Virus record (IMG/VR): IMGVR_UViG_3300018005_000012
Location: 1 to 64,000 of that record
Reading direction: 5' to 3' (one strand)
Length of the DNA: 64,000 nt
Source of the DNA: a virus
Of this stretch, positions 994 through 42,081 are shown piece after piece. Both the position numbers and the translations under genes were made by a program. The notes beneath the pieces were generated by a model that had not been told where the DNA came from, searched no databases, and worked only from the letters and a program-made list of their open reading frames with translations. Positions within the stretch are counted from its first letter, which is position 1. Every line of letters begins with the position of its first letter.

Positions 994-1197
994 ATGGCAC
1001 TGGCAAACCAAAAGGAGTTGGCAAAGGCTGAAGGAAAGGTCACGACTGTCTATGAAGCAGGTATAACTGTGGTAAACTTCAACGCCAACATCACCGTCCA
1101 ACTTCCGCCAGAAGCCCGACAGAGGATTATAGATGCTCTCAACGAAGCGTTCCGCAGGGTTGTATCTGAACTAGGTCTCACACCAGTAACTCCATAA
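994..1197 (+). CDS. Small protein with LANxxEL N-terminal motif
   Basis: ATG 994 downstream of TATA gives MALANQKELAKAE... Confidence 0.7.
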   Translation: MALANQKELAKAEGKVTTVYEAGITVVNFNANITVQLPPEARQRIIDALNEAFRRVVSELGLTPVTP

Positions 1198-1235
1198 TAG
1201 ACTGGTTTAAGTAGAGGGCCAACCTATGATAGTCT

Positions 1236-1433
1236 GTGCATTGGTATTCCGTGACCCTGCTTCTTTTCGCTGTGGGTCTGCTTTGGAAGGCCCAAGTGCC
1301 AGTGCCTTGGCCCGATGCGTGGTGTCCCTTCCCCATTCCTTGGCTCATAGTATGGGCTGTGGGTTGGGGTCTCATTATACACTACGTTCAAGTTAATGAC
1401 AGAAAAAGGGAAAGGAGTCTTTCGGACTCCTAA
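1236..1433 (+). CDS. Small membrane protein
   Basis: Two Trp-rich hydrophobic segments, upstream TTTAAGTA. Confidence 0.5.
   Translation: MHWYSVTLLLFAVGLLWKAQVPVPWPDAWCPFPIPWLIVWAVGWGLIIHYVQVNDRKRERSLSDS
1402..1431 (-). terminator. Hairpin plus pyrimidine tract terminator
   Basis: AGGAGTC-CGAAA-GACTCCT followed by TTCCCTTTTTC on the minus strand, just after the 1440..2048 gene. Confidence 0.6.
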
Positions 1434-1439
1434 CTATTA

Positions 1440-2048
1440 CTACCCACTTATGTTGAAGGTGAAGATGGCCGCATCTGTTCCCGACCCAACGCTATCCACA
1501 TGGATTGTCCATGCTAGTTGAGTAGGCTGCCCACCACTAAGGGTTGAAGGTATTGTGATTGGATAGGACAGATTGACAGGGGGTTGAGCACCGCATCCAT
1601 TTGGATTTGGATTGCAAGGTTGGAAGTTTTGGAGTGTGAATTGACCATCACTTTGGACGGTTAGTGAACCTTGGAAGGTGATGCTATTCAGAGTTCCACT
1701 TAGAGTGCCCGAATTTCCGAATGCTATCATCAATTGGAATTGGTCTCCTACATAGACGGTTGTAAGGACTGGCCCATTATATTGCGAAGGCTGTGTTGCA
1801 CAGGTTACAGATGTTTGGTCGGGTGAAACGGTGCAAGGTTCACTGTAGCCTTCTCCTCCACTTCCCCAATTAAGTTGTGCATTCATGATGAATACATTGG
1901 CAGGAGTTGGTGGGTATGTTGTGATGGTGAGAGTCCCTGTAGTGGCTGTAAGTAATGAAGCCGCATAGACGGCTAACACTCCCATTACTAGGAGTGCCGC
2001 TAACGTGAGTAGTGCCGAATGTTTTCGCAGACTTGTCTGCATCGGCAA
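1440..2048 (-). CDS. Secreted or surface beta-rich protein with signal peptide
   Basis: Basic N-terminus plus hydrophobic helix, then Thr/Gly/Asn-rich beta-type sequence with paired Cys; likely start ATG 2042. Confidence 0.7.
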   Translation of the reverse strand: MPMQTSLRKHSALLTLAALLVMGVLAVYAASLLTATTGTLTITTYPPTPANVFIMNAQLNWGSGGEGYSEPCTVSPDQTSVTCATQPSQYNGPVLTTVYVGDQFQLMIAFGNSGTLSGTLNSITFQGSLTVQSDGQFTLQNFQPCNPNPNGCGAQPPVNLSYPITIPSTLSGGQPTQLAWTIHVDSVGSGTDAAIFTFNISG

Positions 2049-2078
2049 TCCCTATGGCGACAGGGTATAAAAAGATTC

Positions 2079-2309
2079 TTACCAACCAAACCTTTTCTTA
2101 TGTCGTCTATGTATGTCTTCTTTACACTTTTCCCCATGACATCTTTCACAAAGAAGTTGCATATTTTTCAAAGAAGTCTCTGAACCGCCCTCGCATACAG
2201 GTTTAATGTGGTCAAAATCAAATGGGCCTTTTTTGGTGTGACATCTAGCACACTCATTACCCAACTGTAAAGCGGCTAGTCTTCGTATGGTAACGTAAGT
2301 ATTAGCCAT
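2079..2309 (-). CDS. HNH endonuclease
   Basis: CARC...FDHIKPVCEGG...NMQLLCERCH motif. Confidence 0.85.
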   Translation of the reverse strand: MANTYVTIRRLAALQLGNECARCHTKKGPFDFDHIKPVCEGGSETSLKNMQLLCERCHGEKCKEDIHRRHKKRFGW

Positions 2310-2346
2310 GTCCAGACCTCACATTTCAGCCTATAAAAAGATTCGG

Positions 2347-2410: not shown

Positions 2411-2446
2411 AAGTATGTAATGAAGACTGAAGTATTTAAACCTTGT

Positions 2447-7162: not shown

Positions 7163-8257
7163 ATGACAAACCTTCCTCTAACGTTGGATTGCTTCATGAC
7201 CAACGAAACAACAACCGACACTTTACCAAGTAAAAAGTCAGGATGGATTATAGACGAAAAGCAAAAGACTAGAGAAGACTTCACCGAGTATCTAACAAAC
7301 CGTTTAATGGTCTGCCTAGAGATGGAACTGAATTACAAGACCGGAATACATGACAGCACTATAGAATCAGTCTCTAAAGATGAGTTCGGGGTTGATGCCA
7401 CCGAATACGGATTGCCCGAATGTCCAGTATGCGGAGAGAACGATTGCATTAGACACGACCCACCGAAGACCATCCGAGTGATAAGGCATGACTCCACGGT
7501 GAGAGGAAAGGAAATAATCGTGTGGGGAAGCCCAATATCAACGGAAGAGTTTGCAAAAAGACTCCCACTAGAAAATATCAAAAAATACTTCGTGCCAAGA
7601 CCCCAAGACTCACTACACACACACACACTGATTCCAAACCAGAATAAGGCAATTCCGATTCAAATTGCACAGAACACTTGGCAACTCTTTAGAGCCTATT
7701 ATCCTGCTTGGGTGCATATTTTCGGCAACTACAGAAAGCACTTTCTGAGAAGCAACTGGGCGCAGTGGAAGAATTACCAAGTGAACGCACTAGACACGGC
7801 TTGGTGGCCTTATGCGTGTCACAAATTTCAGGGTGGGCTTCACTTCGCAAATTGCAATAAGGACTACGATGGAAATCTCTCTTCATTCGATGCGGAAATT
7901 CGCACACAGGACGCAAGCACAAACCTAGAGCAAATCGTTTCAGCGAGAGCATTGAGCAAAGCGATTTTCCTTAAGGCCGCACAACTGAGCAATGAGGGAG
8001 TTATCGAGATGCCCGAAGAAAGGAAGGAAATCATTCTCCCAATAATTGAGGCATTGAATAGCGGATGTGCGAAAATTTGGAGAGAGGGCAAGAGGACTTA
8101 CGATATGGAATTAGAATCGAAGCATGGCCGATTCATGAAGGAACTGGCCGCAGAGTTCTTTAGCCAAGTCCGACCCTTACTCTCAGAGTTTGAGGCCAGA
8201 TGCGTGGGTAATTGCATTGCTAATCCTATTAGACTCAGGAGGACAAAATTCGCATGA
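7163..8257 (+). CDS. Putative COOH-NH2 amidoligase (glutamine synthetase/GCS-like fold), paralog 1
   Basis: Motifs CLEMEL, HDSTVRGKEI, SLHTH, AEIRTQDAS; clearly similar to 8549..10123. Confidence 0.75.
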   Translation: MTNLPLTLDCFMTNETTTDTLPSKKSGWIIDEKQKTREDFTEYLTNRLMVCLEMELNYKTGIHDSTIESVSKDEFGVDATEYGLPECPVCGENDCIRHDPPKTIRVIRHDSTVRGKEIIVWGSPISTEEFAKRLPLENIKKYFVPRPQDSLHTHTLIPNQNKAIPIQIAQNTWQLFRAYYPAWVHIFGNYRKHFLRSNWAQWKNYQVNALDTAWWPYACHKFQGGLHFANCNKDYDGNLSSFDAEIRTQDASTNLEQIVSARALSKAIFLKAAQLSNEGVIEMPEERKEIILPIIEALNSGCAKIWREGKRTYDMELESKHGRFMKELAAEFFSQVRPLLSEFEARCVGNCIANPIRLRRTKFA

Positions 8258-8541
8258 CTACCGCAAAATCAAACCGACACATTAAAATACCCTGCGGTGA
8301 AGGTAGAGGCATGAGCAAATCGCAACCGATTCCACTAAAGGTAAAGAACGAAGGTAGAGTGTTCGCTATAACCCTAGCCGTTTCTAAGAATCGGCTTATT
8401 GAATTGCTTCACGGTGAGGGCATGGCAATGGGCGTTATTTCGGTGAGACGGGTCACGGAAGACGAAAAGGACGCACTTGAAGCGGCAAAAGAGGACAATG
8501 ACTATGCCAACACTAAAAGCGATTATGGATTCATGGAGTAA
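8254..8541 (+). CDS. Hypothetical protein
   Basis: ORF between the two amidoligases. Confidence 0.6.
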   Translation: MTTAKSNRHIKIPCGEGRGMSKSQPIPLKVKNEGRVFAITLAVSKNRLIELLHGEGMAMGVISVRRVTEDEKDALEAAKEDNDYANTKSDYGFME

Positions 8542-8548
8542 ATAGAAA

Positions 8549-10123
8549 TTGCTCCCCACCGAGACGATTGAGTTCACAGAAGACCCGATAACGGCAGACG
8601 ACTTAAGCACTCACGAAGGAAGTGCGAGTCATTCCTCTTGTCCCTATTGCGGGGCGAAGGTTTCAAGTCACATGATACCCGAAGAGCCGGACACCGTGGA
8701 GCATGAGCATAGAATCATCGAAAACATACAGATTTGCCGAAGACTCTATGAATGTAATGCTCTAGGACTGACTAACCAATTCTACACTTATCAGGACTTG
8801 AACACTCTAACCAATTGGACTATTGCAAAGGTCGCACAGGGGAAGACCGAGAAAGCAGACGACACCGAGAGGCTTCAATTCGGAAAGAAGAAACTGGCCG
8901 AAGCCATCAAACCCATTTGGCGTTTCAAGACGAAGTTAGCCACGAAAGACGACTTCACCGATTATCTGGCCAAGAATCTAGTCTTAGGGCTAGAATTAGA
9001 GTTCGACTATAAGGATGCACTCGACCCAATTTCAGATTCCGCAGTAAAGCGAGCCTTCGGGGTTAGCACTACAGACTACCATCACCACCCTGAATGTCCG
9101 ATATGCGGAAACGAAATGTGCTGGAACCATCTTCCCGACAACCTGATAAGAGGCATCGAAAGAGATGCTTCAATTCGTGGGTGGGAGTTCTTAATCTACG
9201 GGAGCCATATCTCTAGCGAAGACTTTGCCAAACGTCTACCACTGGCCAAGTTTAGAGACCACTTCATAGTCAACGAGAGAGACGGACTCCACGTTCACGC
9301 CATGCTGAAACACGACATCGCCAGACTACCTAACGTTATCGTGAAGAATTTGTGGCAACTCTTCCGCTATTACTATCCGGCTTGGGTCAATCTCTTCGGC
9401 AACTATTCACAGAGTCAGGGATTCTTGAGACATTCGGGCTATAACGGCCATGACTATGTGACTTTCACATCATTCAGTAAATCGCCTTTCCTAACTCGGT
9501 GGGCACAGGACGTTAAGATGCAAAGATGTGCCCTTTACCTTAAGGAGACACCTATCGAGAACGAAGATATGGATTCATTTGACGTTGAGATTCGGACAAG
9601 TGATGGGAGCATGGATTTGGAACAACTCGTGGCCGTCAGGTCAATCACTAAAGCGTTGATATTGAGAGCCGCACAACTTAGCAACTTCGGACTCATCAGT
9701 GTAGAAAGCAACACCGAAACTTGGGAGAGGGTGAAGGATGTGGTTAGCAAAATCAATCTGAGGTCTGGATTCAAGAAAGACGACATTGAGTTCATGCAAA
9801 AGCATACAGTGAGTTTGGTTAGAGAATTGGCCCCGTTCCTTAGTGAGTTTGAGCGAACCTGCATTAAGCATCTACTTGAAAAACCAGTGAGAGAGCGAGA
9901 GAATCACCCGACATCACACGACTTAGGCTTAGACCTGAGCGAGAACGCCAAGCACCTTAAGAAACTAATTGCTGTCGGTGGCATTGAGACGGACACCGAA
10001 GAGGCGTGGTTCGGGAAGGTCGCACACATAATGGGTCTGCCAACTGACGAAGTTAAGACCGCACTTCGCCAACTAAAGGCGTATTTTGACAACGAAACAC
10101 ACCAAATGGTAGTGATTGGCTAA
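8549..10123 (+). CDS. Putative COOH-NH2 amidoligase, paralog 2, with N-terminal Zn ribbon
   Basis: Motifs LGLELEFD, RDASIRGWEF, GLHVH, DVEIRTSDGS typical of Amidoligase_2-type enzymes. Confidence 0.8.
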   Translation: MLPTETIEFTEDPITADDLSTHEGSASHSSCPYCGAKVSSHMIPEEPDTVEHEHRIIENIQICRRLYECNALGLTNQFYTYQDLNTLTNWTIAKVAQGKTEKADDTERLQFGKKKLAEAIKPIWRFKTKLATKDDFTDYLAKNLVLGLELEFDYKDALDPISDSAVKRAFGVSTTDYHHHPECPICGNEMCWNHLPDNLIRGIERDASIRGWEFLIYGSHISSEDFAKRLPLAKFRDHFIVNERDGLHVHAMLKHDIARLPNVIVKNLWQLFRYYYPAWVNLFGNYSQSQGFLRHSGYNGHDYVTFTSFSKSPFLTRWAQDVKMQRCALYLKETPIENEDMDSFDVEIRTSDGSMDLEQLVAVRSITKALILRAAQLSNFGLISVESNTETWERVKDVVSKINLRSGFKKDDIEFMQKHTVSLVRELAPFLSEFERTCIKHLLEKPVRERENHPTSHDLGLDLSENAKHLKKLIAVGGIETDTEEAWFGKVAHIMGLPTDEVKTALRQLKAYFDNETHQMVVIG

Positions 10124-11797
10124 ATGTGTAGACTAGCACTGATAATCTCGAAAATTCCAGTCAATCGGTTCGAGACCGCATTCAAGTCGGCTTGGGCTGA
10201 TGGCAATGACGATGGCGTGGGAATTTACTGGCGAGACATGGAAGGAACACGACACTTGGCTAGATTCCCGAAGTCGGCAGACTTGGCGAAGGTCGGGACA
10301 ACTTATGACCGAATGCTGATTCACTTCCGCAAATCCACGAAGGGCGAAGGGACTCATCCCTTCACTTGTAAAGACAGACCCAAACTTGACAGTAGAAATT
10401 GGCTTCTCGTTCATAATGGATGTGTGGCAGACGGTGAGGCTAGGAAGGAATTAGAGAAGACCCACACATTTTCGACAGAGATAGACAGCGAGATTTTCAT
10501 TCACATTTGGGGAGAGATTAAGGAAAAAGACTTAGCGAAGAGAGCCAAGAAATTCAGTGAGGCCAGAGAAAAGTTGGGGATAACAGGGTGGGCGAACCTG
10601 ATTTTCTACAACGTGATTTCGGATGAATGGGTCGCATTTAGCGATGGCTCGATAGGTTTTGTTTACAACAAAGATACGCTAATAATTTGCTCGGATGACA
10701 CATGGTTCGACACGATAGAGGCCACCAAACGGAAGATTCACAACTTGGTCTTAGCCACTGGCGATATTGCTTACGGAAAGGGATTGAAGTATAAGGTAAA
10801 GGAGGGCGTTTGGAAGATTCGCTCTGCTATACCGACAACTTCGGCCAGTCTTACAAACGTAGACGGAAGGGCACTTTACCGTGGGTGCGGCATGGACGCA
10901 GATGTGTGGGAGCCAGCGTATGATAAGCCAACACAGAGAAAAGAAGCCGGATGGGATGCCACTGAAAGGTCATTCGTAGATACGAAGGGAAACGCATTAA
11001 ATTGGGATGCTAGTAAACGGGCCTTCGTGGATGCAAAGGGGTATCCCGTAGACAGCAACTACACCCAATATGGCAACCCTAACGGACACTATTTCACACC
11101 TTCAGAGTTCACAGACCAGAATAACGATGAGTATTGCGACATTTGTTTCATGACTAGAGAGTATCACACTCTTAAACCCGCACTTGATAATGACGGGGAT
11201 GACGGAGACGAAGATGCACGAGAGAGAGAGACAGCCGAGATTGACAGTATCGCAAACAGCCGCATTGACGAAAGCGTTTGGAATAGGCCACACCCGTTCA
11301 CTCGCAACTTCAATAAGGGAACCATCACTTGTATGTGTGGTTCAACGGTAAGTTATGGGACATTGCACTTGGCTCACGAGTTCAAGCCTATCATAGCCAA
11401 GAACGGTAAACCAACTTCATATTGTTTCGTTTGTGGCAACATGAAGACTATGGGAAACCATAAGGAAGAAAACTCTGAAACTCACTTCTTTACCCCTCTG
11501 AGATTTGAAGTTAACCAAAGCAACGGCTCGACAACTTATATAGATTCACCCATTTGTGGACGGTGCGGATTCAGAAACGAAGTCCATCCTATGTCTTATA
11601 ACGTTCAAATCAAACAATCTACACAGAGTAGCGAGACAATGAGAGTTGAACGCATGAGGCCGATGGGTTGCGGTTGCAAACCTGACGAGAGACCACAACC
11701 TATTATTTGCACTTATCACTGGGGTCAGGGATTTAGAGATGCAGACAATCAGGGCTATCTCGTCAAAAAGATAGCATTCGATAGTGGGGCAGAGTAA
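10124..11797 (+). CDS. Class II (Ntn) glutamine amidotransferase with C-terminal Zn-knuckle repeats
   Basis: N-terminal MCRL nucleophile, NDDGVG, IHFRKST, THPF, LVHNG, IDSE. Confidence 0.88.
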   Translation: MCRLALIISKIPVNRFETAFKSAWADGNDDGVGIYWRDMEGTRHLARFPKSADLAKVGTTYDRMLIHFRKSTKGEGTHPFTCKDRPKLDSRNWLLVHNGCVADGEARKELEKTHTFSTEIDSEIFIHIWGEIKEKDLAKRAKKFSEAREKLGITGWANLIFYNVISDEWVAFSDGSIGFVYNKDTLIICSDDTWFDTIEATKRKIHNLVLATGDIAYGKGLKYKVKEGVWKIRSAIPTTSASLTNVDGRALYRGCGMDADVWEPAYDKPTQRKEAGWDATERSFVDTKGNALNWDASKRAFVDAKGYPVDSNYTQYGNPNGHYFTPSEFTDQNNDEYCDICFMTREYHTLKPALDNDGDDGDEDARERETAEIDSIANSRIDESVWNRPHPFTRNFNKGTITCMCGSTVSYGTLHLAHEFKPIIAKNGKPTSYCFVCGNMKTMGNHKEENSETHFFTPLRFEVNQSNGSTTYIDSPICGRCGFRNEVHPMSYNVQIKQSTQSSETMRVERMRPMGCGCKPDERPQPIICTYHWGQGFRDADNQGYLVKKIAFDSGAE

Positions 11798-12356
11798 ATT
11801 GGTAGACATCTATATTCGTAAGTCGGGACAGGATGAGAGCCAAATTCCAAAGGGCATCAAGATAAAGGATGATGATAAAAAGATTCGGATTGCGGGAGCC
11901 GTTATCAGAGTCACAGTCATGCCACGGAGATATGGGAATGACTACAAGATTTCGGTTTGGCTTCCAAACGGAAAGCAACTAGAGGCCAGCGATGAGCATG
12001 GGTATATCAACTTCGTGGACTTCGCTAAGGGACTCGTTGAGGCCGCAACTGGAACCAAGCCAAAGGACGGGACAGAGAAGAAGGTTGTGGACATCAACGG
12101 ATTCCCCGCTAAAATCAGTGAGCGAGAGGATGACAAAACCATGACCATTGAAGCAACCATTGACCCATTAGACGAGAACTACTCGATGCCTAAGAAGGAA
12201 GAGGTCAAACCCATTATGCCCCAAGTCCAGAATCAGCCAAGTCTACCTGAGAGAATCAGGGCAGATATGTCAGACGCAAACAAACAGAAGGAGGGCGAAA
12301 CCATTGAAGAATGGGTGGCTCGATTGCAAGATGACGACTTTAGGGGGTATGCCTAG
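11784..12356 (+). CDS. Hypothetical protein
   Basis: Coupled ORF. Confidence 0.7.
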   Translation: MGQSKLVDIYIRKSGQDESQIPKGIKIKDDDKKIRIAGAVIRVTVMPRRYGNDYKISVWLPNGKQLEASDEHGYINFVDFAKGLVEAATGTKPKDGTEKKVVDINGFPAKISEREDDKTMTIEATIDPLDENYSMPKKEEVKPIMPQVQNQPSLPERIRADMSDANKQKEGETIEEWVARLQDDDFRGYA

Positions 12357-12755
12357 ATGCCATCAGGAATCACGAGACGAAGTATAGATAACTACCAAAG
12401 ACTGGTAGCGGGATATAGGCGAAGTGTGGGCAAGTTCATAGCCAATTACAAGAGTCTCGCACCCAAGATAGACATACTGTGCAGACTGATGGAAGCACAA
12501 AAACTTTTCACGATGACTAAGAAGTGGGGCAACCCCATACAAAGGGATGAGGTTATGAGGCTATTTAAGATTCGTTCACTAGGCATTTTCCTTCAATGTA
12601 GATGTGACGATTCGGAATGCAGTTGGGCAAACTACGATGAGGGGGAAGATGTGACCTATTGCGAGTGCATCGCTAACAATGAGATGGGTTGCCGTGGACT
12701 TTTTGTGGTGGCATTTGACCATGAGGGCAACGTATTAGGATACGAAGTAGAATGA
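12357..12755 (+). CDS. Cys-rich hypothetical protein
   Basis: CRCDDSEC-W...CEC...C motif, also present in the N-terminus of 12752..13768. Confidence 0.7.
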   Translation: MPSGITRRSIDNYQRLVAGYRRSVGKFIANYKSLAPKIDILCRLMEAQKLFTMTKKWGNPIQRDEVMRLFKIRSLGIFLQCRCDDSECSWANYDEGEDVTYCECIANNEMGCRGLFVVAFDHEGNVLGYEVE

Positions 12756-26486: not shown

Positions 26487-26735
26487 TTGTCACTAGCAAA
26501 CCAAAAGGAACTCAATGACCAATATCGGGAGATGCGTCACGAGTTCGACATTCCCGATGACCTGACTGAAGAAGACTTCTTCCCTGAGAAGTTCGGCCCT
26601 TGCTTCTTCTGTGGTAAGATGGTGTCAGATTACGATTTTTGTTGGGGTTGTGAGCATTTCGTATGTAAAGATTGTAACGACCCCAATAAGATTCTACACG
26701 AACAGCACAGAGTAGAAGAACACTTAACCCCGTAG
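26487..26735 (+). CDS. Zn-finger protein with LANxxEL motif
   Basis: MSLANQKELNDQ...CFFC...CWGCEHFVCKDC. Confidence 0.7.
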   Translation: MSLANQKELNDQYREMRHEFDIPDDLTEEDFFPEKFGPCFFCGKMVSDYDFCWGCEHFVCKDCNDPNKILHEQHRVEEHLTP

Positions 26736-29984: not shown

Positions 29985-30077
29985 ACTACATTGAATAAGC
30001 CCCTTCTCCTATTTAAACGTAGCCACTCCCTCGTAACGCAAACTCTTATAAAGGAGAAACGCCACTTTAAATATAGT

Positions 30078-31976
30078 ATGTCTGATAACTCCACCGATGA
30101 CAAACCGAGAGATAACGTCATCACTGGCACACTGAAACGTCTGGGGTTCATCTCAGCCGCACCAAACAATCTGGTGACAGGAAAAGGATTGAGCGACCCA
30201 ACTGCCCAAGCATCCTACAAGCCGCCCTTGGAATCTCAGTTAGGACAGATTGATAGGGGTGAGGCGTGGTGGAGAGACTTCGCTTGGGAAGAGTATGCGA
30301 CCAAAGACCTGCCCGGTCTCGGTCTAGGCTTCACGGTCTACCCGTATGTTGCCGTCTGGGAGAAGATATGGGGAGCCGTCCCTACCGAAGACTACGAGAA
30401 GTATAAACAATACTACGTTCAGGAGCCGTTCATCAGAGCCACGATAGACTTCCACACACAGATGACTATCTCACAGGGCTATGAGTTGGACTACCCACTC
30501 GCTACTGTAGTGAAGGACGTTAAGGCTTTCCTTGACAGACACGATTTCGTCAATCTACTGAAGGTCATGGTGAAGGATATGCTCGTCTTCGGTAACTCCT
30601 ACACAGAGGTTGTCAGAACTTGGTTCTGCCACGAGACGGGTCACGACCTACAGGAACTAAGGATTTCCTATGAGACACAGGGAAAGGATGGAGAACCGGG
30701 ATACTGGTGGACAGACAGAGTGGACGTTGCCGATAAGCACAACAAGTTGTATCCGACCCACAAGTTGGAGAACCCCTATGGTGAGATTACCCGCTTCAAG
30801 CCACTCGACCCCATGTATATGCGTGTCAGAAGGGATGCCTACGGAACCATCCTTGGGTATGTCCAGTATTACGTTTTTCCGTTGGTCACGTTCTTGGCTG
30901 ACGAGATAGTTCACCTAAGATATATGCCTACCTCTTGGACTTACGAATCAGTCTACGGAGTTTCAATGCTGAGACCTATCCTCTTCCATCAGGAACTCAT
31001 GAAGAACTATGAGCAAACGATGGGAGCCATCATGAATGTCTTCCTGAAACCGATGTTCCTAGTCCATGTTGGCACTTCAGATAACGGCCTGCCTACAGGA
31101 GAAGTAACCAACCAACAGTATAATGCGGTAAGGAGATACTTCCAGTCGAGCCAGCCCGGACAGTCCATCGTAATCAGAGCCTCAAGTCCCGTGAAGGTAG
31201 AGCCAATCAACCCACCCATTGACAGAATGCAGACCACATCCTTCTGGCTTCAGTGGTTACACAACATGAGAACCTACGCCCTATCTGTTCCCAAGTTCTT
31301 CACCGACCCTGCTGGACTCAACAGAGCCACAGCCCAGACAGTAGAGAGAGGATACTTTACTTTCATCAGTTCCAACCGCCAGTCCTTGAACAGCCAACTA
31401 GAACGGAGCATCATGATAATGGTGTTGAAGTCGCTCTATGGTAAGGTTGCAGACGAACTCATCCATGAGTATGATGTGCCCAAGTTTATCTGGAAACCAG
31501 TGAAAGAGGACTCCCTAGAGGACAAAGCAAAAACTTATTTACCCCTCTACGCAAGCCGTATCCTGACAAGAGATGAAGTCAGAAAGGCACTCGGCTTTGA
31601 GCCACTGGATGAGGAAGCGTTGGAACAGGAGATAGGTGAGACAATGCCACCTATGGCTCAGACAGGAGCAGGAGCACCCGGAGTGACACATGAAGGAACA
31701 CCGACCTTCGGTAGTCCAGATGAGAAGATGGCCACAAGACCGCCTGACGTTGGTGTATCGCCAAACGTAGGAGCCGAACCAGAATGGGGAGCAGACATGG
31801 CAGAGAAGACCGAACAAGGAGAAAGACTAACAGAGGTAGAAGACGACATAGATGCCTTGAGACAGGAGTTTAGTGCTCTTAAGAGAGAGGCACAAGGCTT
31901 GTTAGATATGCCCACTACAGAGGACATAGAAAAGAATCTAACAGAAATGAAGAAACGGCTTGGCGGGAAGCAATGA
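30078..31976 (+). CDS. Portal protein
   Basis: LVFGNSY, LDPMYMRVRRD..G.ILGYVQ, DEIVHLR, YGVSML, ILTRDEVRKALG; ATG 30078 preferred over the track start 29991. Confidence 0.88.
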   Translation: MSDNSTDDKPRDNVITGTLKRLGFISAAPNNLVTGKGLSDPTAQASYKPPLESQLGQIDRGEAWWRDFAWEEYATKDLPGLGLGFTVYPYVAVWEKIWGAVPTEDYEKYKQYYVQEPFIRATIDFHTQMTISQGYELDYPLATVVKDVKAFLDRHDFVNLLKVMVKDMLVFGNSYTEVVRTWFCHETGHDLQELRISYETQGKDGEPGYWWTDRVDVADKHNKLYPTHKLENPYGEITRFKPLDPMYMRVRRDAYGTILGYVQYYVFPLVTFLADEIVHLRYMPTSWTYESVYGVSMLRPILFHQELMKNYEQTMGAIMNVFLKPMFLVHVGTSDNGLPTGEVTNQQYNAVRRYFQSSQPGQSIVIRASSPVKVEPINPPIDRMQTTSFWLQWLHNMRTYALSVPKFFTDPAGLNRATAQTVERGYFTFISSNRQSLNSQLERSIMIMVLKSLYGKVADELIHEYDVPKFIWKPVKEDSLEDKAKTYLPLYASRILTRDEVRKALGFEPLDEEALEQEIGETMPPMAQTGAGAPGVTHEGTPTFGSPDEKMATRPPDVGVSPNVGAEPEWGADMAEKTEQGERLTEVEDDIDALRQEFSALKREAQGLLDMPTTEDIEKNLTEMKKRLGGKQ

Positions 31977-33054: not shown

Positions 33055-34146
33055 ATGCAACCGCCTTACGCACCTGCATCGCCCCAACAGCCAGCACCGA
33101 AGCAGGGCCAGCCGAACTATCCTAACATCGAGAAGTTCAATGAAGAGCAACCCAAAGGGCCATGTGCACTTTGCGACCAACCGTGGGAAAATCATTGGAC
33201 TATAGACGACCATGAGTATATGCCACTAAAGACGGAAGAGCCAGCCCCTAGTGATGTTTGTCAAGAATGTGGAGACTTGCTTTCAGTAGAAGAGATAGAA
33301 AAGGGTGAGATATACTGTTCTAACTGTAAAACCGATGTTATGGAGAAACAGGAACCAGACCCTAGCAATCCTGATAGAGAGTTGGACACTGACCCTGAGA
33401 TTCCAGAGCCAGTAGAGCCGGGTGAGGACGAGGACGAGAAGAAGCCTTTTGACGGTAAGCCAGTCACAACCGAAGGGCTAGAGGTTCCAGACAAGATTGA
33501 GATACCTGAGAGGCTCTACAACGACCTGATGATGATGATTGAATACTCCGTGAGTAATGACAATGAAGCGGGTGGCTTCCTCATAGTTGCCAAGCATGGT
33601 GAACTAGGTGTAGTGGGAGAGCAGTTTGGGAAGGACAGGGAGATAGTGCTGGAGCCTAACGAGCAACTCCATGAAGGGGAGTCTCTCATTGGAACAGTCC
33701 ATATGCACCCCGTAACTCCAACGGCCAGCACTGGCGATGTCTCTGGTTACTTGGGCGATGAAAACGAGAAGGTCATGGTGGTCGTGGGACAGGACAAGTC
33801 TATCAACTTCTTCTTCAAGACCCCCTTCACAGCCGAAGGAGACTACGGAGAGGAGATAAGCGACAACTTCGAGCAGGAAGACATGGATATGCTGGCCGAA
33901 GGGCTAGGCTTCATCTGGTATCGGGGCGAGGAATCGGACAGGACTACCCTCAACCTCATGTCCAATACGGTGGACAACGTGGAGTTGAACATCGTAGAAG
34001 ACGTTTGGCCCGTTGAAGACCTCGTGAAAGGGCTAGGGATTAAGGGCAGACCTGACATACCGGAAGAGTATTCAACCAAAAAACAGCCACTTCGTCTTCA
34101 GATACCGTTCCATCTACACTGCAACGAGAGAAGGCTAATTGGATAG
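33055..34146 (+). CDS. JAB/MPN+ (JAMM) metalloprotease with acidic Zn-finger N-terminus
   Basis: NEAGGFL...IGTVHMHPVTPTASTGD matches E...HxH-x5-S-x2-D. Confidence 0.8.
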   Translation: MQPPYAPASPQQPAPKQGQPNYPNIEKFNEEQPKGPCALCDQPWENHWTIDDHEYMPLKTEEPAPSDVCQECGDLLSVEEIEKGEIYCSNCKTDVMEKQEPDPSNPDRELDTDPEIPEPVEPGEDEDEKKPFDGKPVTTEGLEVPDKIEIPERLYNDLMMMIEYSVSNDNEAGGFLIVAKHGELGVVGEQFGKDREIVLEPNEQLHEGESLIGTVHMHPVTPTASTGDVSGYLGDENEKVMVVVGQDKSINFFFKTPFTAEGDYGEEISDNFEQEDMDMLAEGLGFIWYRGEESDRTTLNLMSNTVDNVELNIVEDVWPVEDLVKGLGIKGRPDIPEEYSTKKQPLRLQIPFHLHCNERRLIG

Positions 34147-35995: not shown

Positions 35996-36034
35996 AGGGA
36001 CTCAGGGATTAGTCCCTGATTCCTTCCCCCTTTT
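35996..36034. terminator. Hairpin between convergent genes
   Basis: TCAGGGA-TTAG-TCCCTGA followed by a pyrimidine tract. Confidence 0.55.
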
Positions 36035-36347
36035 AAATAAGAACGTGCAAGAAGTAGAGTATCGTTGCTAAGGCCGCACCAGACGCAATTACTCCGCCTA
36101 TGGTAGCGAAGAGTTTAATCGTAAAGTCCCTGTAGTCTGTGCCCTTCTGCACTCCTCTTTCGAGAACACCAACACGCTCTGCCAAGACAGTGCTGTTGTG
36201 ATTCATAATGGCACAACTCTCTTTAATCGAGTCTATCTTCACTCCAAGTGTGGCTCTATCGGCTTTGCTCTCAGCAATGAAATCAGTCAACTTATCATTC
36301 AGTTGAAGTAACAAATCTCGTGTGGTTGAACCATTCTCAGCCATCAC
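36033..36347 (-). CDS. Coiled-coil protein with C-terminal TM (holin/XhlA-like architecture)
   Basis: Heptad-like N-terminus plus one C-terminal hydrophobic helix. Confidence 0.55.
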   Translation of the reverse strand: MMAENGSTTRDLLLQLNDKLTDFIAESKADRATLGVKIDSIKESCAIMNHNSTVLAERVGVLERGVQKGTDYRDFTIKLFATIGGVIASGAALATILYFLHVLI

Positions 36348-37189
36348 GCTTCACCCTTCTCTGGCGTTGGCTCTGAGGGAGTGGGCGAAGTCAGACTTCT
36401 CATATACTCTCTTGGCGAGGCCATATGGATAGTCTCTTCGGGTGGTTCTTCGACTGTCTCTTCTGGCGTTGGGAAGCCCATCTCCTTTGCCTCCTTTAGT
36501 GCTGTCATGATACTGTTGACGACCTCAATCGCACTATCTATGTCCTCGAAGTCCAAGTCTTCGATAGTGGCCAAATAACTCTCGATTCCCTGAACGAGAT
36601 TGGTTGCATCAGTTAAAGCATCAGTCAAGACCGACTTGACCATCTTAGCATCAAGCGGTGCTTCCTCTTCCCCTTTACTTGCTTCTTGATAAGTCTTACA
36701 AGGGCAATCTGCCGCACCGGGAAAATAAGAGGTGGGTGCATGACAACCATCTTCTTGATGATAACCTTCTACATGACCACATACACACTTGCCCTCTTCC
36801 TCTCGCATGGGTATGTCTTCTGGAGCAGTGAACGGTGTCCTTTTAGTTGCAAACTCTCCAGTCTCGGCTTGGTGTTGACTTACATGATGACTCCTCTTTT
36901 CGGGGTCAGAAGGTAGTTTGTTTCCACAGACTGGACACGGATGGCCTGATTCCTCATCCTCACTTCTGCTTACCTCAATAGGCTCGGTGGGTGAGACCTT
37001 ACTGTTAGGAGTAAGACACTCTTCGGCTTTTCTGAGAGCATCTTCAGCCTTCTCGTAGTAGGCCATCTCAGTCCCCCTTACCTTATCAATCTCAGTCATA
37101 GGGTCGTCCCGACTGTAGAACTCTTCGGCCTTAGAGACATCCTCTTCGGCCTTCTGAAGCAGGGCTGGCCAACTCAGTTTGTAACTCAT
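36344..37189 (-). CDS. Acidic Zn-finger protein
   Basis: CPVC...HHVSQH, CVCGH...CH...CPC; E/P-rich linkers. Confidence 0.7.
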   Translation of the reverse strand: MSYKLSWPALLQKAEEDVSKAEEFYSRDDPMTEIDKVRGTEMAYYEKAEDALRKAEECLTPNSKVSPTEPIEVSRSEDEESGHPCPVCGNKLPSDPEKRSHHVSQHQAETGEFATKRTPFTAPEDIPMREEEGKCVCGHVEGYHQEDGCHAPTSYFPGAADCPCKTYQEASKGEEEAPLDAKMVKSVLTDALTDATNLVQGIESYLATIEDLDFEDIDSAIEVVNSIMTALKEAKEMGFPTPEETVEEPPEETIHMASPREYMRSLTSPTPSEPTPEKGEA

Positions 37190-37236
37190 CCTATATCAAG
37201 TCTTTATAGGGTTGGGAACTATTTAAAGGTGCTGTC

Positions 37237-37944
37237 CTACAGCAATTCATGAGGCGACTTCAGAAAGACTTTCCAATCTATCGGAGTCGGTTTACGCTGG
37301 TAGAGTTGATAGAACTCATTGACGTAGTTCTCTGGATATTGGCTCCGTCTCAGAATCTCTTGAAGTGAGAGAGTAGGGTCTACTGGGATTTTCCATCGCA
37401 CAGGGGTAGGATGCTCAGGGTCAACCGAGTGCTTGGTGAGGGTGATGCGACAAATCCTGTCCAGACTTATGAAGACTCGCTTATCGTGAAGATACTGAAG
37501 CCAAGTGGCTAGGTTCCAATAGAGTTCGTCCCGATACTCACGCAACTCTTTGTAGGTAGCGGGAGTGATGTAGATGTAGAAGTGGAAACCCTTACCCGCA
37601 CTGAAGAACATATCCACGTTGTTCCAGAACCGAGTGCCAAAGAACTTTGCCTTCTCCAAGACACTGGTGAAGGTATCACCATCTTTCACATCTATGTCTA
37701 CAAAGAGTCGGTTAATCACCACTGCATCCTTCTGCTCTTGTGGCCACTCTTTGGTCTTAAGAGGGGCATAGAATGGGAAGTAGGCATCTTCAACCCCAAT
37801 CAATCTATCTAATACATAACTATAATATTCGCTGATTGTGCTCACATGGTATCTATACAACCCTACGTCTGCCGGAATCTGAGGCAGGTCTCTGTCCCAA
37901 TAGGCTTTCGCCAGACTAAGTAATGGCATATTTGATTGAGTCAA
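37237..37944 (-). CDS. priS: Archaeo-eukaryotic primase catalytic subunit
   Basis: LFVDID, FSAGKGFHFY, LDRICRI. Confidence 0.88.
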   Translation of the reverse strand: MTQSNMPLLSLAKAYWDRDLPQIPADVGLYRYHVSTISEYYSYVLDRLIGVEDAYFPFYAPLKTKEWPQEQKDAVVINRLFVDIDVKDGDTFTSVLEKAKFFGTRFWNNVDMFFSAGKGFHFYIYITPATYKELREYRDELYWNLATWLQYLHDKRVFISLDRICRITLTKHSVDPEHPTPVRWKIPVDPTLSLQEILRRSQYPENYVNEFYQLYQRKPTPIDWKVFLKSPHELL

Positions 37945-39262
37945 GATTCATGGCCTTTATTTGTTCCACATAAGTCTGAGCCTGTTCAATTACATCGTCC
38001 ACAATCTTCTCCAAGTCGCCCACCATCAGAACCTCCACTGCGGCCAATCTTGGCAGATTGTCCACCAGAGCACAATTCAAAGCCCCACCCCGAATGTGAG
38101 GGAAGGAGTGAGCGTAGTGGGCTTTGAGAAAGGATGAGACTTCTATTATCTCACAATTCTCAATCTCCTCAAAAAGCCCTCTCTCATAGACAGGTGTATT
38201 GCAAAAGTCCCGAACCTTGTGATTGAACCAGAACTTCCTCAGAGTCAGGGTTATCCTCTCTTCTAAGGCCCGATAGTCATCAATCAATCCCTTGTGCAAA
38301 TCGCTGTCGTATCCCATATCTTGTAGCGGAGCATAGTCTCCATATGCGAGAATCCCAAACCGTCTCCCCATTGCGTAACTATTTCTGCAAAGGAAGCCGA
38401 GAATATCTCTGAAGACGGAGACATGAGTTCCCTGTAGAGCGAGAGGATTGGCCGTCACTACAAAGGGACACGCACCTGTCACCGATAGTGTTGTGCCACC
38501 GCCAGCCACCGTTGCCCTTCCCGATTCCAGAAAGCCCAACAAGAATCCTGCCATGTTCTCTACCGTCTGGCTCTCAATCTGGTCTATGGCAAGCGGATAG
38601 TATTGCTCATGGAACAAGCCGTAAGCCTTGTCGTCAGTCCACTTGGCCGACCCTAGAAGGGTGTTCTTGGTGGCCTTATCAATCAGTCTACCAGCCAACT
38701 CGAAGAAGGTGCTCTTGCCAGTGTTGGGCGGGGTAATCTGCAACTCGTGAGGCTGATACCTCATGACATAGCCTCTTGGCAGGGTGGCCCTGTTAGCCAA
38801 AACCAGAGCAGGGTCTCTTGTGCAATTGTATTCCATGATGCCCTTGATGAGATTGTTATACTCTTCGGTGGGTTTGTCAGCCACAACATCGAGCCACCTA
38901 CCAAGAGTAGCGTCATTGAACTGATAGTCCGTCCCGAAAACATACATTCCCAAATCGTTCCATTCTTCGAGCCTTGGGTCGCCTCTCTGAATCTTATTCA
39001 TGATGTAACCCTGCTCCTTCAGTTCAAAAATCCCATCTAAATCCTTAATAGTCATCTCAGTGAGAGGTAAGGCAGACTTCTTGCTATGGATAACACTCTT
39101 GGTATCCACGATGTAGATAGGCGGAGTTATCACTGTCGGATAGGCCCGATAGAGTTTGGCCCCAACGGTAATGAAGATTCCGTTGTCAGTCTTCTCAATC
39201 TCCGACTTCTGATAGATGGGTTCGACTTGCTCAAACGTATTGAGCACTTTGTTTTCGGACAA
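37916..39262 (-). CDS. MCM-like AAA+ helicase
   Basis: HELQITPPNTGKS, LAIDQIE, FLESGRATVAGG, VVTANP, RRFG parallel the MCM core motifs. Confidence 0.7.
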   Translation of the reverse strand: MSENKVLNTFEQVEPIYQKSEIEKTDNGIFITVGAKLYRAYPTVITPPIYIVDTKSVIHSKKSALPLTEMTIKDLDGIFELKEQGYIMNKIQRGDPRLEEWNDLGMYVFGTDYQFNDATLGRWLDVVADKPTEEYNNLIKGIMEYNCTRDPALVLANRATLPRGYVMRYQPHELQITPPNTGKSTFFELAGRLIDKATKNTLLGSAKWTDDKAYGLFHEQYYPLAIDQIESQTVENMAGFLLGFLESGRATVAGGGTTLSVTGACPFVVTANPLALQGTHVSVFRDILGFLCRNSYAMGRRFGILAYGDYAPLQDMGYDSDLHKGLIDDYRALEERITLTLRKFWFNHKVRDFCNTPVYERGLFEEIENCEIIEVSSFLKAHYAHSFPHIRGGALNCALVDNLPRLAAVEVLMVGDLEKIVDDVIEQAQTYVEQIKAMNLDSIKYAIT

Positions 39263-39344
39263 CTACTTACCCTTCGTGAGTATCCTATTTAACTGTTCTC
39301 ACCCATAATTCTTTAAATAGGCCGATTGCGTAGGGTATGGTAGC

Positions 39345-40013
39345 ATGGCAGAGACGGAGAAGCCAGTTGAGAAGCCGACAAAAGAGGCATTGGAAGACCT
39401 TTATCCAGATGTGGATATGCCCCACCTTCAGACTGTCATTCAACTGCTCTATCACACTGGCTATGAGATTGACGACATTGAGAGCATGGATGCCACTCCC
39501 TATGTAAGAGTCTATGTGGGTGGTGAAGAGTGGTTCATCATGAGCGATACTGAGGCCGATGAATATGCCGAAGAGGACGCAGAGAACTTGTTTGACGAGA
39601 TGGAAATGGATGCGTTGCCCGGAGACTGGCCCGACTTCATAATGAACAAAGATGACTTCGATAGTGCTCTGGCTGAAGCCATTCAGAACTACATTGAAAC
39701 CGCTAGAGAGGAGCCGTCCAACGACCCTACAACCTACGATAGCAAACTAGACGAGGAGATGGCCGGAGCCAATACCGCCTCAGAACAGGACTTCGAGGAT
39801 TATCTCACTACTCAATGGGTTCCAGATGGAGACGTTATCCAGTGGTTCATCAGCGAGTATGGCCACGAAGCCTTTAAGGAGACAGCCAATGTTGATACTG
39901 CGGCTCTCGCCAAACACATCATGGAAACAGATGGCAGGGGTTCCATCATCTCTGACTACAATGGAGAAGAGATTGACCTTGGTAAAGGTTACTACGCCTA
40001 CAGATTAGCATAA
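39345..40013 (+). CDS. Highly acidic hypothetical protein
   Basis: D/E-rich throughout; own TATA+AGGG promoter. Confidence 0.75.
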   Translation: MAETEKPVEKPTKEALEDLYPDVDMPHLQTVIQLLYHTGYEIDDIESMDATPYVRVYVGGEEWFIMSDTEADEYAEEDAENLFDEMEMDALPGDWPDFIMNKDDFDSALAEAIQNYIETAREEPSNDPTTYDSKLDEEMAGANTASEQDFEDYLTTQWVPDGDVIQWFISEYGHEAFKETANVDTAALAKHIMETDGRGSIISDYNGEEIDLGKGYYAYRLA

Positions 40014-40047
40014 AATCCTTTTATACCCTGCTAACGAAGGGTAGCCT

Positions 40048-41028
40048 ATGAAATTCCTCGAATTAGACGAACCCATGATACCATACATCTGTATGGGAAC
40101 CTGCGGTAAGAAGCAGGCCGGAAAGAGCCTCTACTCTCGTGAGTTGGGCTATAAGATAATCAAAGAAGAGGGGGGCGAAATTCTATGGCTGTCCACCGAA
40201 GAGCCTACTGACTTCATGTTCACCATCGAGATTGAAGAGCATGAGGGGTGGGATAAGGTCTTCGCTAAGAAGTATGGTGTCGAACCTATCGTCCATTGGG
40301 AGTATCTTCCGAATGCGGAAGAGGTCATGCGATACATCGGAGTGGATGGCAGAATCATCATTACTGAGGCAGAACCAGTCGAACCTAAACCTCTGAAAGA
40401 CATAAAGGGAGAGACACCAGAAGCGAGAGCAAAGAGAGAAGAGGAAGTCAAGAAAGCGGCAAACGACAGACAGAAGGGCATCAAGTTGGAGTTCAAGACC
40501 ATTAAGGTGGACACCGACCATTCGCCACTCGCCAAGATGCTGGAAGAGCACGACATCCGTTACATCGTTCTCGACTCCCTTACCACGCCATTCGACCAAC
40601 TCCTAATAGGTGGGAGACAGAACTTCGGCATCAGAGCACAACTTGAGGAAGCCTTCCTGAACACCACTCAACAGTTGGTCGTCAAGAGGGGCAAAGTGAC
40701 CAAAAAGAACATCTACGTCATGACCACCAATCACATCACCAACGACCCAACAGACCGTTTCACAAAACTGATGATTGAAAAGGAGTTAGTAGAGAAGGGT
40801 GGTGGGGCGGTGGGTTACAATCTCAAAGTCCTCTACGGCTTCAAACCAAAGCAAACGCCTCACGGTTCGAGAGAGGTCTGGGTGATAAGGTTCCCCAACC
40901 TACCGGACTATGGCAAGATGTATAACCTACTCATCACCAACAAGGGCTTCACCAAGACATCGAAAGACGAATTGAAGGATGTAAAAGAAGAGCAAAAGGC
41001 TGAGAGAAAAGAAGCGAAAGAAGCATGA
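40048..41028 (+). CDS. RadA/RadB-family recombinase ATPase
   Basis: GKKQAGKS, LWLSTEE, IVLDSLT, MTTNHI, GGGAVGY. Confidence 0.8.
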   Translation: MKFLELDEPMIPYICMGTCGKKQAGKSLYSRELGYKIIKEEGGEILWLSTEEPTDFMFTIEIEEHEGWDKVFAKKYGVEPIVHWEYLPNAEEVMRYIGVDGRIIITEAEPVEPKPLKDIKGETPEARAKREEEVKKAANDRQKGIKLEFKTIKVDTDHSPLAKMLEEHDIRYIVLDSLTTPFDQLLIGGRQNFGIRAQLEEAFLNTTQQLVVKRGKVTKKNIYVMTTNHITNDPTDRFTKLMIEKELVEKGGGAVGYNLKVLYGFKPKQTPHGSREVWVIRFPNLPDYGKMYNLLITNKGFTKTSKDELKDVKEEQKAERKEAKEA

Positions 41029-41180
41029 CTCAATTAGCCAATGAAAAGGAGTTGGAAAAGGCACGAGAGTCATCAGTAGAGTTGTTGGATAGAGAGGCTC
41101 GTCTCCAACTTCTAAAGGACAACCTAAACGAAATCAAAAGGAGAGTAGAAATAAGACATGAGCAACTTAGACAAGTTTAA
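41025..41180 (+). CDS. 51-aa coiled-coil protein with LANxxEL motif (not in ORF track)
   Basis: ATGA overlap with the RadA-like stop; MTQLANEKELEKARESS... Confidence 0.7.
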   Translation: MTQLANEKELEKARESSVELLDREARLQLLKDNLNEIKRRVEIRHEQLRQV

Positions 41181-41559
41181 TACAGCCAACTTCAAGGCCC
41201 AATTCCATACGGAAGGGGAATACACCGGAAGCGGAGACATGGGCGGCAGTTACGAGTATATCGCCAAACTCCTGCTCAATCCTGTATCGGATGGTCGGAA
41301 CAGACTCCTATGGTTGGTTCTGGCTCCCTATGCTGTATCCATCCTCAAACTGGATAGAGAGAAGGCCATAGACTTGGTGACAGAATACATAAAAGCCTGT
41401 CACGAACTCAAACCCTGTCAGGATGTGATTGATAAGGTGGAGCAATATGTGGACAATGCGGCAAACGTGGAGAACGGATTAAAGCCGCCTCACTTGGATA
41501 CTCTCCAACAGAGCGACCCAGAACTATATGAGATAGTTCAAGAGGCGATTAGAGAATGA
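41158..41559 (+). CDS. priX: PriX-like primase accessory subunit
   Basis: DGRNRLLWLVLAPYAVSILKL...AIDLVTEYI helical signature. Confidence 0.65.
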   Translation: MSNLDKFNTANFKAQFHTEGEYTGSGDMGGSYEYIAKLLLNPVSDGRNRLLWLVLAPYAVSILKLDREKAIDLVTEYIKACHELKPCQDVIDKVEQYVDNAANVENGLKPPHLDTLQQSDPELYEIVQEAIRE

Positions 41560-41744
41560 GTCTAGCCAATGAGGAACAACTTTTAGAAGCGAAGTTCGAG
41601 TCCTTCATACCATTTCGTCCTTTGCTTTTGGATGAACACAAAGCAATTTTTGTAATGATTAACTCAAAGGTAGTTGACGATTGGTTTGTGCTGACCGTTA
41701 AATTGACTAATGGAGACACAATAGTATTTGGTGAGATGAGATGA
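41556..41744 (+). CDS. Small protein with LANxxEL-like motif
   Basis: MSLANEEQLLEAK. Confidence 0.7.
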   Translation: MSLANEEQLLEAKFESFIPFRPLLLDEHKAIFVMINSKVVDDWFVLTVKLTNGDTIVFGEMR

Positions 41745-41890
41745 GTCTAGCCAACCAACAGGAACTTGATGAGACCAGAGAACCGTGGTGGTCACACTTG
41801 GATTCTACAACCTACGCATCAATAACGATTCCAACTTGTATGTATGGGATGCCCCGTATCCATGTCTCAAGAGAGGCGATTTCAGAATGA
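41741..41890 (+). CDS. 49-aa protein with LANxxEL motif (not in ORF track)
   Basis: ATGA overlaps at both ends; MSLANQQELDET... Confidence 0.65.
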   Translation: MSLANQQELDETREPWWSHLDSTTYASITIPTCMYGMPRIHVSREAISE

Positions 41891-42081
41891 TTCCCTTCTA
41901 TCTCTTAGTCAATCAAGTGGAACTTGCTCGTGCAAAACACGCCAAGTGCCCTAGTAAGCACTCGTGGAATTTAGAGATTGATACTTGCAAAGACTGTGGA
42001 ATCTTGAGAGAAGAATACGAGGACTTCATCGTTGCAAAACTTACCTTAAGAGAGGCGTTTGGAATTGATACCATTCGATAG
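41887..42081 (+). CDS. Small Zn-binding protein with degenerate LxNxxEL motif
   Basis: MIPFYLLVNQVELARAK...CPSKH...CKDC. Confidence 0.6.
   Translation: MIPFYLLVNQVELARAKHAKCPSKHSWNLEIDTCKDCGILREEYEDFIVAKLTLREAFGIDTIR

Follow-up and report, generated by a model that had tools for sequence, protein, structure and literature searches.

A candidate portable N-terminal address peptide on unrelated micro-proteins of a peat archaeal tailed virus lineage

The window considered here, positions 1-64000 of the linear 91,434-bp IMG/VR record IMGVR_UViG_3300018005_000012 (G000; estimated 79% complete), belongs to an uncultured tailed virus of archaea from peat and encodes a set of micro-proteins that share a short peptide at their N-termini. 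Seven open reading frames (ORFs) of the window begin with M-x-L-A-N-x-x-[EQ]-L-x-x-A, the sequence referred to below as the tag, and an eighth carries a degenerate copy. An initial annotation had singled out these eight N-termini as a modular system and had offered three options for it: capsid targeting, adaptors that recruit diverse targets to one hub, and leaders for modifying enzymes. All eight were found where it had placed them and with the start codons it had given, among them two ORFs that fall under the 60-aa cutoff of the ORF track (E, 51 aa, and G, 49 aa) and two that are buried in over-extended ORFs (A inside a TTG-extended frame at 928-1197, H inside 41785-42081). The starts look plausible, judging from the Shine-Dalgarno (SD)-like motifs or start/stop overlaps that are present at them.

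All eight tagged ORFs lie on the plus strand. A (994-1197, 67 aa) starts with ATG, bears the tag MA-LANQKELAKA and scores 32.1 with the position-specific scoring matrix (PSSM) described below; its own TATA-like box precedes it at 964, and its orthologues in the relative G001 and in P0004/P0005 are identical over the first 11 residues. B (23707-23952, 81 aa, TTG start, T-LANQRELDKA, PSSM 31.3) has a CxxC...H...H pattern in its cargo, overlaps a 58-codon upstream ORF by 4 nt of start and stop codon, and is preceded by an SD-like GGAG. C (25938-26204, 88 aa, S-LANSRELRQA, PSSM 23.7) has Zn-ribbon-like cargo and a GTG start, the GTGA of which overlaps the stop codon that ends the gene of an RlaP-like nucleotidyltransferase at 25327-25941. 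D (26487-26735, 82 aa, TTG start, S-LANQKELNDQ, PSSM 30.1) continues through a linker into a Zn domain that contains 6 Cys and 2 His residues, and has orthologues in both G001 and a second relative, G006. The remaining four are packed between primase and polymerase genes. E (41025-41180, 51 aa, ATG start with an ATGA overlap, MTQ-LANEKELEKA, PSSM 30.4) has helical or coiled-coil-like cargo and sits between the PriL-like gene and PriX. F (41556-41744, 62 aa, ATG, MS-LANEEQLLEA, PSSM 25.3) looks beta-rich, overlaps the PriX stop with its ATGA start, and has no homologue that could be found in the relatives. G (41741-41890, 49 aa, ATG, MS-LANQQELDET) is the most widely retained of the tagged genes and stands immediately upstream of PolB in G001 and L064-L066. 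H (41887-42081, 64 aa, ATG, MIPFY-LLVNQVELARA, PSSM 25.5) overlaps the stop of G with its ATGA start and has Zn-ribbon-like cargo; its degenerate tag is shifted back five residues, the core starts at 41905, and its orthologue in L064 and L066 begins MKS-LENTVKLEKAR.

The downstream parts of these proteins had been described as unrelated, and BLASTP bears this out: the eight are mutually unrelated save for one weak 21-residue match. The accompanying claim of four different Zn-binding domains is based on Cys/His patterns, and homologues support such a domain for D only. When the eight micro-proteins were compared with Pfam at E values up to 10, none rose above the curated cutoffs, and a literature string search for the tag variants returned only unrelated words, in keeping with the earlier statement that no described family was known to match the motif.

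The tag is concentrated at ORF starts far beyond chance. In all six frames of the whole 91-kb record, LANxxEL occurs six times, and all six matches lie on the plus strand, 2-3 codons past an ATG, GTG or TTG. A start-anchored expression, ^.{1,2}[LF][AV]N..[EQ]L, finds 6 matches, where 60 second-order Markov simulations averaged 0.05 and never exceeded 1, and the tag core anywhere in the six frames occurs 9 times where 0.77 would be expected. This is one of three tests on which the annotation could have failed; it passed this one and also the other two, on the signals at the starts and on the retention of the tag in orthologues. A PSSM of 12 columns and 23 bits was built from 26 tags; all of its scores above 15 in G000 fall at ORF starts, and its sole further match there, beyond the window, is an internal copy at 82020 on the minus strand (score 14.7) between two Zn ribbons. 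Over its 12-13 residues the consensus reads M-x-[LIVF]-[AS]-N-Q-x-[EQ]-L-x-[KE]-A-[KR]. N5 and L9 are invariant in 26/26 tags, which also all have A, S or V at position 4 and E, Q or D at position 8; Q6 is kept in 19/26 and A12 in 20/26, position 13 is mostly R or K, and L3 stands two residues past the start in most tags. Counting the relatives, 33 tagged ORFs were tabulated (8 in G000 and about 25 elsewhere), with lengths of 14-102 aa and a median of 74.

Selection maintains the tag at the level of the peptide. In every diverged pair of orthologues the first 13 residues are better conserved than the cargo, so that the tag is retained in the relatives more faithfully than the domain it is attached to: for D in G000 and G006 the tag matches at 8/13 positions against 33% for the cargo, for the DW family at 7/13 against 28%, and for the orthologues of G at 7-9/13 against 34-49%. 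Identical residues in orthologous tags are frequently encoded by different codons, and it is mostly at wobble positions that the tag-coding stretch varies. The paralogous tags of one genome tell the same story: 148 of 428 comparisons of identical residues (35%) use the same codon, a share equal to the 35% that codon usage in long genes would give. The synonymous variation noted in the initial annotation is thereby confirmed in numbers, and sharing at the level of expectation excludes that the similarity between tags stems from gene conversion, from recent duplication or from a signal in the DNA or RNA.

The tag is also portable. Once their first 14 residues are cut off, BLASTP sorts 32 tagged proteins into 21 cargo families, and no frame-shifted paralogy was found among the tagged cargo. 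A profile of family D, searched against 1.84 billion representative proteins, gave 98 matches. The five top-scoring ones open with the tag itself or a variant (MT-LANQKEL, MG-LANQSQL, ME-LANQKQL, MSH-ITNQNEL), a sixth, P0011, starts with a shortened tag (ME-LANKGQL), and the roughly 90 weaker ones match in the Zn domain only, with unrelated N-termini, mostly in stand-alone proteins of 52-80 aa. No second copy of the D domain was seen in G000, G001 or G006. A converse case lies next to D itself, where the ORF at 26201-26518 (plus strand, 105 aa) belongs to a cargo family whose members in G001 (98275) and G006 (52407) bear the tag, with BLASTP identities of 48% and 34% to these tagged orthologues, and has a distinct Cys-rich N-terminal segment in the place of the tag. 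The tag-less homologues of D and this tag-less ORF together indicate that the tag has been gained by and lost from independent cargo. Elsewhere the D-type domain is also built into larger proteins, P0012, P0021 and P0028, which are 549-1164 aa long and carry 5-11 tandem copies of it.

Where does the tag occur? G001 is a complete genome of 105.7 kb with terminal repeats, a TerL 94% identical to that of G000, and 8 tagged ORFs; G006 (106.9 kb, PolB 69% identical) has about 12. The metagenome fragments L063 and L064-L066, with PolB 65-66% identical, carry the variants MSF-ISNAHEL, MI-VANQIEL, MT-LSNKKEL and MKS-LENTVKL. Pattern scans of IMG/VR found the tag in this lineage and otherwise only chance matches, and the 401 genomes of the archaeal class with the nearest cellular uS2 gave a single match, against our own chance estimate of about 1.3. 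The tag is therefore a trait of a virus lineage and not an N-terminal motif of the host. Searches for homologues of D and A in 5.8 billion proteins returned just 2-3 close relatives each. A possible relic was noticed at 5897 on the minus strand of G001 (L019:5800-5900), where the tag-like LANWRELIRAR scores 19.6 in the PSSM and no ATG, GTG or TTG occurs within eight codons upstream. Its frame of 28 codons past the first residue of the tag would, by arithmetic, reach about 20 nt into the start of a helicase gene at 5830. Here a tagged micro-ORF may have decayed, or may be read from an unusual start.

The tagged genes keep to a particular kind of genomic address. They occur in tandem arrays and at the junctions of replication or early-type operons, and none lies within a tail or head module. 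In G000 the order is PriL-like, E, PriX (41158-41559; PF18689, 2.9e-12), F, G, H and the family B polymerase PolB (42059-44173), while B, C and D adjoin RNase H (24134-24622) and the RlaP-like nucleotidyltransferase; in G006 and L063 tagged genes follow PolB. As many as 30/33 tagged ORFs begin at or inside the stop codon of the upstream ORF, 20 of them with the exact 4-nt NTGA overlap that is found in 10-21% of all called genes, and SD-like 4-mers precede 24/33 of the tagged starts as against 18% of random positions. This arrangement marks the 30 as what appear to be translationally coupled internal cistrons of replication or early-type operons. No common C-terminal counterpart, an "anti-tag", was seen in the proteins encoded upstream. 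The tagged genes are accessory and are rapidly gained and lost. In the sister lineages L059, L068 and L061 PriX abuts PolB, and no tagged gene separates the two. E is lacking from G001, L059 and L061, and it is precisely missing in a much more abundant relative in two peat or wetland sequencing runs. Contigs of this relative, at a depth of 106-224, lead from 41022 through 32 different letters to 41191, so that its PriL-like gene runs directly into PriX.

The conserved positions make structural sense. We take A4-N5-x-x-[EQD]8-L9 to be a capping box (N-cap Asn with Glu, Gln or Asp at N3) combined with a hydrophobic staple (N' and N4), and the pattern h-Ncap-x-x-[E/Q/D]-h is present in 26/26 tags. 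The capping-box interpretation explains the invariance of N and L and the free exchange of E, Q and D, and from it the tag would begin with 3-4 extended residues and then pass into a short helix with a good start. Predictions by AlphaFold2 (AF2) agree on where the helix begins: in D it spans residues 4-20 (mean predicted local distance difference test score, pLDDT, of 55; low confidence, with a shallow alignment), and in A, whose cargo is modelled as a beta-hairpin and a long helix (mean pLDDT 67, below 50 for residues 1-10), it begins at residue 4. In these models at least, the tag is not predicted to pack onto the fold of the cargo. Such a box is local structure of a generic kind that marks no family or function, and it leaves unexplained that a single lineage has placed the same version of it, at the same distance from Met1, on at least 20 unrelated proteins.

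Together, the fixed N-terminal position, the purifying selection on the peptide, the portability over at least 20 folds and the restriction to one clade lead us to read the tag as a portable, lineage-specific recognition peptide, for address or docking, that is read by one shared partner; we put the probability of this at about 0.5. In this view a small clade of tailed archaeal viruses in peat places the tag on many unrelated micro-proteins, each of which would present a free extended N-terminus of 3-4 residues and then a short self-capped helix, with A4 as N', N5 as the N-cap, E/Q8 as N3 and L9 as N4. One common partner in the infected cell would bind it, and interchangeable small cargo domains, often Zn-binding, would thereby be gathered at a single place or machine. 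The hub-adaptor option of the initial annotation is compatible with the evidence. A more elaborate form, which is tentative and falls a little short of an even bet, is that of a dedicated addressing system: one reader, viral or host, would bind the self-capped 12-residue tag, possibly after N-acetylation by a RimI-like enzyme of the virus, and would gather fast-turnover Zn-finger and other effectors at one site, which might be the replication factory, a hub of the host or the procapsid. Such a system would parallel, in a virus of archaea, the principle behind the capsid-targeting signal (CTS) of phage T4, though with 5-6% of the genes taking part.

What could the reader be? Candidates conserved in G000, G001 and G006 are a RimI/Ard1-type GNAT acetyltransferase, a papain-family protease, the amidoligase operon, a HerA-like ATPase beside the portal, and the replisome proteins. 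The GNAT (54994-55458, minus strand; Pfam Acetyltransf_1, 7.6e-20) matches the earlier statement that the virus encodes its own Ard1-like enzyme. The top NCBIfam match of its G001 orthologue is rimI (TIGR01575, 4e-23, 82 bits, slightly below the cutoff of 86.4), and the GNAT is a candidate writer on tagged N-termini. The argument that position 2 of the tag is tuned to a NatA-type enzyme survives only in part: A, S or T stands there in 20/33 tags, but K, N, Q, E, I or L does so in the other 13/33, and much of the Ser/Thr/Lys/Asn bias exists because the ATGA start/stop overlap forces an A as first base of the second codon. The operon, with two amidoligases, a GATase and an ATP-grasp enzyme, occupies 7163-14550. 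The papain-family cysteine protease is encoded at 79537-80454 of G000 (L040:15537-16454), on the minus strand, amid replication-type genes, with matches to Peptidase_C1 (5.7e-11), weakly to C39_2, and to a PHROG peptidase (1.5e-17). Co-folding of PolB with G returned an ipSAE (interaction prediction score from aligned errors) of 0.00, which gives no answer and is evidence neither way.

Several points weigh against a shared partner. No reader of the tag emerged from the analysis, and intrinsic helix capping alone can explain the conserved positions, so that their conservation is no proof of one. The tag also offers little hydrophobic surface (L3, A4, L9 and A12) for a classical docking helix. 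L059, L061 and L068 have the same helicase, PriS, PriL-like protein, PriX and PolB and no tagged genes in that module, and the replisome therefore does not need them. The structure models are of low confidence because the alignments behind them are shallow, and the sequencing runs in which the virus was found are all of DNA, with no RNA run among them.

Could the tag work with no reader at all? It might simply give micro-proteins that arise by re-initiation within operons a good N-terminus of a generic kind, a strongly capped helix start that protects them from N-terminal degradation, helps early elongation or nucleates folding without any common partner. The invariant positions are exactly those of the capping box and the hydrophobic staple, no carrier exceeds 102 aa, and the coupling of 30/33 tagged cistrons, with its excess of NTGA overlaps, fits as well. 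However, G000 has 22 genes of up to 105 aa with a 4-nt overlap and just 6 of them are tagged; for generic capping S, T or D would serve equally well as N-cap, and N4 could be another hydrophobic residue, in contrast to the invariant N5 and L9; Q6 and A12, which play no part in capping, are retained too; and the tag is restricted to a single narrow lineage of viruses. This explanation is unlikely, though less so than the other rivals. A second way to do without a peptide reader would be for the conserved 36 nt to act as a signal in RNA or DNA (for instance as a downstream box, as a site of recombination or as the boundary of a cassette), with the peptide as a by-product. The starts of F and G do share 14 identical nt, and in the tandem arrays each cargo is flanked on both sides by a tag-coding stretch. 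Yet the codon sharing of paralogous tags, at its expected value over 428 comparisons, together with the wobble-position variation and the different codons for identical residues in orthologues, effectively refutes the idea, and we give it next to no weight.

Two further explanations do posit a reader, of a specific kind. The tag could be a capsid-targeting signal that binds to the procapsid, at its scaffold or inner shell. The micro-proteins would then be packaged and, together with the DNA, injected as first-strike effectors, perhaps with the tag clipped at maturation. In T-even phages a short N-terminal CTS is the sole common part of the small, diverse and fast-evolving internal proteins IPI, IPII and IPIII, whose cargo is interchangeable and whose peptide can address foreign proteins (PMC3012670). 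The likeness in anatomy, in that small, unrelated and fast-evolving proteins of a tailed virus have a short peptide at the N-terminus in common, makes this the closest formal precedent, and the arrays C-D of G000, 97885-98468 of G001 and 36471-36820 of G006 adjoin the HerA-like ATPase and portal block. The T4 proteins, though, come from an internal-protein locus, whereas the archaeal virus has its tag in coupled cistrons, mostly inside replication or early-type operons (PriL-like, PriX, PolB, RNase H, RlaP-like), which argues weakly against packaging. The host is an archaeon, Pfam and PHROGs found neither a prohead protease nor a scaffold, including among the portal-proximal genes, positions 13-14 (about 1.1 and 0.4 bits) hold no conserved cleavage site, and the cargo is mostly acidic or neutral rather than basic. 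We know of no sequence relationship between the CTS and the tag. Of the original capsid-targeting option, then, the precedent stands while the gene context and the lack of a protease or cleavage motif count against it, and we regard it as rather improbable. The tag could instead be a recognition handle for a viral enzyme, namely the RimI-like N-acetyltransferase, the papain-family protease or the amidoligase/GATase/ATP-grasp set, which includes a role as leader of a ribosomally synthesized and post-translationally modified peptide (RiPP). Its strict distance from the N-terminus would suit an enzyme that reads a free N-terminus; the GNAT, the Peptidase_C1 protease and the amidoligase operon, with its weakly RimK/MvdD-like ATP-grasp, are conserved in three genomes; and the alternation of E and Q at position 8 resembles ligation sites that require deamidation, as in pupylation. 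But in G000, G001 and G006 no tagged gene adjoins the candidate enzymes, position 2 is A, S or T in just 20/33 tags, and there is no single obligatory reactive Glu, since D can stand at position 8 and some tags have D-K-L for K-E-L. No GG-type or other cleavage motif is present, and the cargo looks like folded domains of 40-100 aa and not like short cores. An enzyme handle is accordingly doubtful, more so than capsid targeting, and the leader option of the initial annotation is disfavoured.

An address or docking peptide has company among other systems, none of which it fits in detail. The loading peptides of encapsulins and microcompartments are short, helical, portable terminal addresses read by a shell protein, and encapsulin shells share the HK97 fold with the capsids of tailed viruses. 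These peptides are amphipathic and mostly C-terminal (in encapsulins) or flexibly linked, whereas the tag is polar, strictly N-terminal and 12 residues long; they also have a shell partner, for which no counterpart came to light with the tag. The double-glycine leaders of class II bacteriocins and lanthipeptides, with the consensus L-S-x-x-E-L-x-x-I-x-G-G, are read by the papain-fold C39 domain. Like the tag, they are N-terminal helical peptides with an E-L core, a small or hydrophobic residue three positions on and variable cargo, and the virus has a papain-family protease with its weak C39_2 match. Unlike them, the tag lacks a GG or GA site (G stands at position 14 in 4/26) and is off by one in register, the virus has no ABC transporter, and the tagged genes cluster neither with the protease nor with the amidoligase operon. 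RiPP leaders more generally precede a short unstructured core, in contrast to tag cargo of 40-90 aa, which in D is a conserved stand-alone Zn domain. The tag would thus belong with portable terminal address peptides as a principle and fails the defining features of the known systems where these were checked. Some 20 orphan families can, by their portable tag, be united in a single functional class. No other part of viral genomes is as poorly understood as the micro-proteins, and a 12-residue peptide is a handle for finding the partner that these would share. Should there be a reader, then, judging by Pfam and the literature searched, no addressing or docking system has been described in archaeal viruses before this one, which would reveal where the effectors act and supply a natural tag for cargo delivery in archaeal systems.

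The rest of the genome is that of a tailed virus with a replication apparatus of its own, whose DNA recurs across many peat and wetland metagenomes. The portal is encoded at 29991-31976, TerL at 60040-61593 and the tail tube at 53801-54952 (minus strand; from Pfam). A primase and replisome block fills 36033-44173 with the archaeo-eukaryotic (AEP) primase PriS (37237-37944, minus; DxD and SGKGFH motifs), a Walker-A helicase-like protein (37916-39262, minus; 97% identical in G001, with no match in a sequence search of the PDB), the PriL-like protein of 326 aa, PriX and PolB. The ORF at 36344-37189 was considered as a viral sliding clamp and rejected, being an acidic low-complexity protein that is not PCNA-like. 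The proposed assignment of the ORF at 33055-34146 as a JAB/JAMM/MPN+ protease found no support, with no Pfam or NCBIfam match at E <=0.01 and a chance-level E of 0.12 in the PDB sequence search. In scans with Pfam and PHROGs, PriX alone could be named among the portal-proximal and replication-block genes, PHROGs gave for the tail genes and those past the terminase only the papain-like peptidase and a weak head-closure match (0.0014), and the same databases yielded no nameable capsid protein, scaffold or prohead protease. The closest relatives of the uS2 gene are in metagenome-assembled genomes of Nitrososphaeria, at a mere 36-38% identity. PriX, known elsewhere from Sulfolobales-type archaea, also points, tentatively, to Thermoproteota as host, and a scan of genome contigs with a TerL profile found no provirus.

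Some smaller features deserve mention. TATA-like boxes of the form [CT]TTAA[AT]TA lie near 964-1000, 2599, 34154, 39312 and 57525, and about 20 nt after them comes a common ATAGGGT..GGT-like element, right before the start codon or RNA start, which may be an initiator or SD-type signal of some transcription units, including that of tagged gene A. Mapping of the boxes yielded no classification into early and late genes. At 64912-65903 of G000 (L040:912-1903), on the minus strand, a gene with the N-terminal domain of dATP/dGTP diphosphohydrolases (PF18909, 1.4e-20) stands beside a weak match to nucleoside 2-deoxyribosyltransferase, a pair which hints that the virus alters the nucleotide pool or its DNA bases. 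Finally, the Endonuclease VII family (PF02945, 6e-17) is present in several scattered copies, at 29625-29984 and 59246-59698 (both minus) and at 76082, 81343 and 83090 of G000, and these are probably homing-type nucleases.

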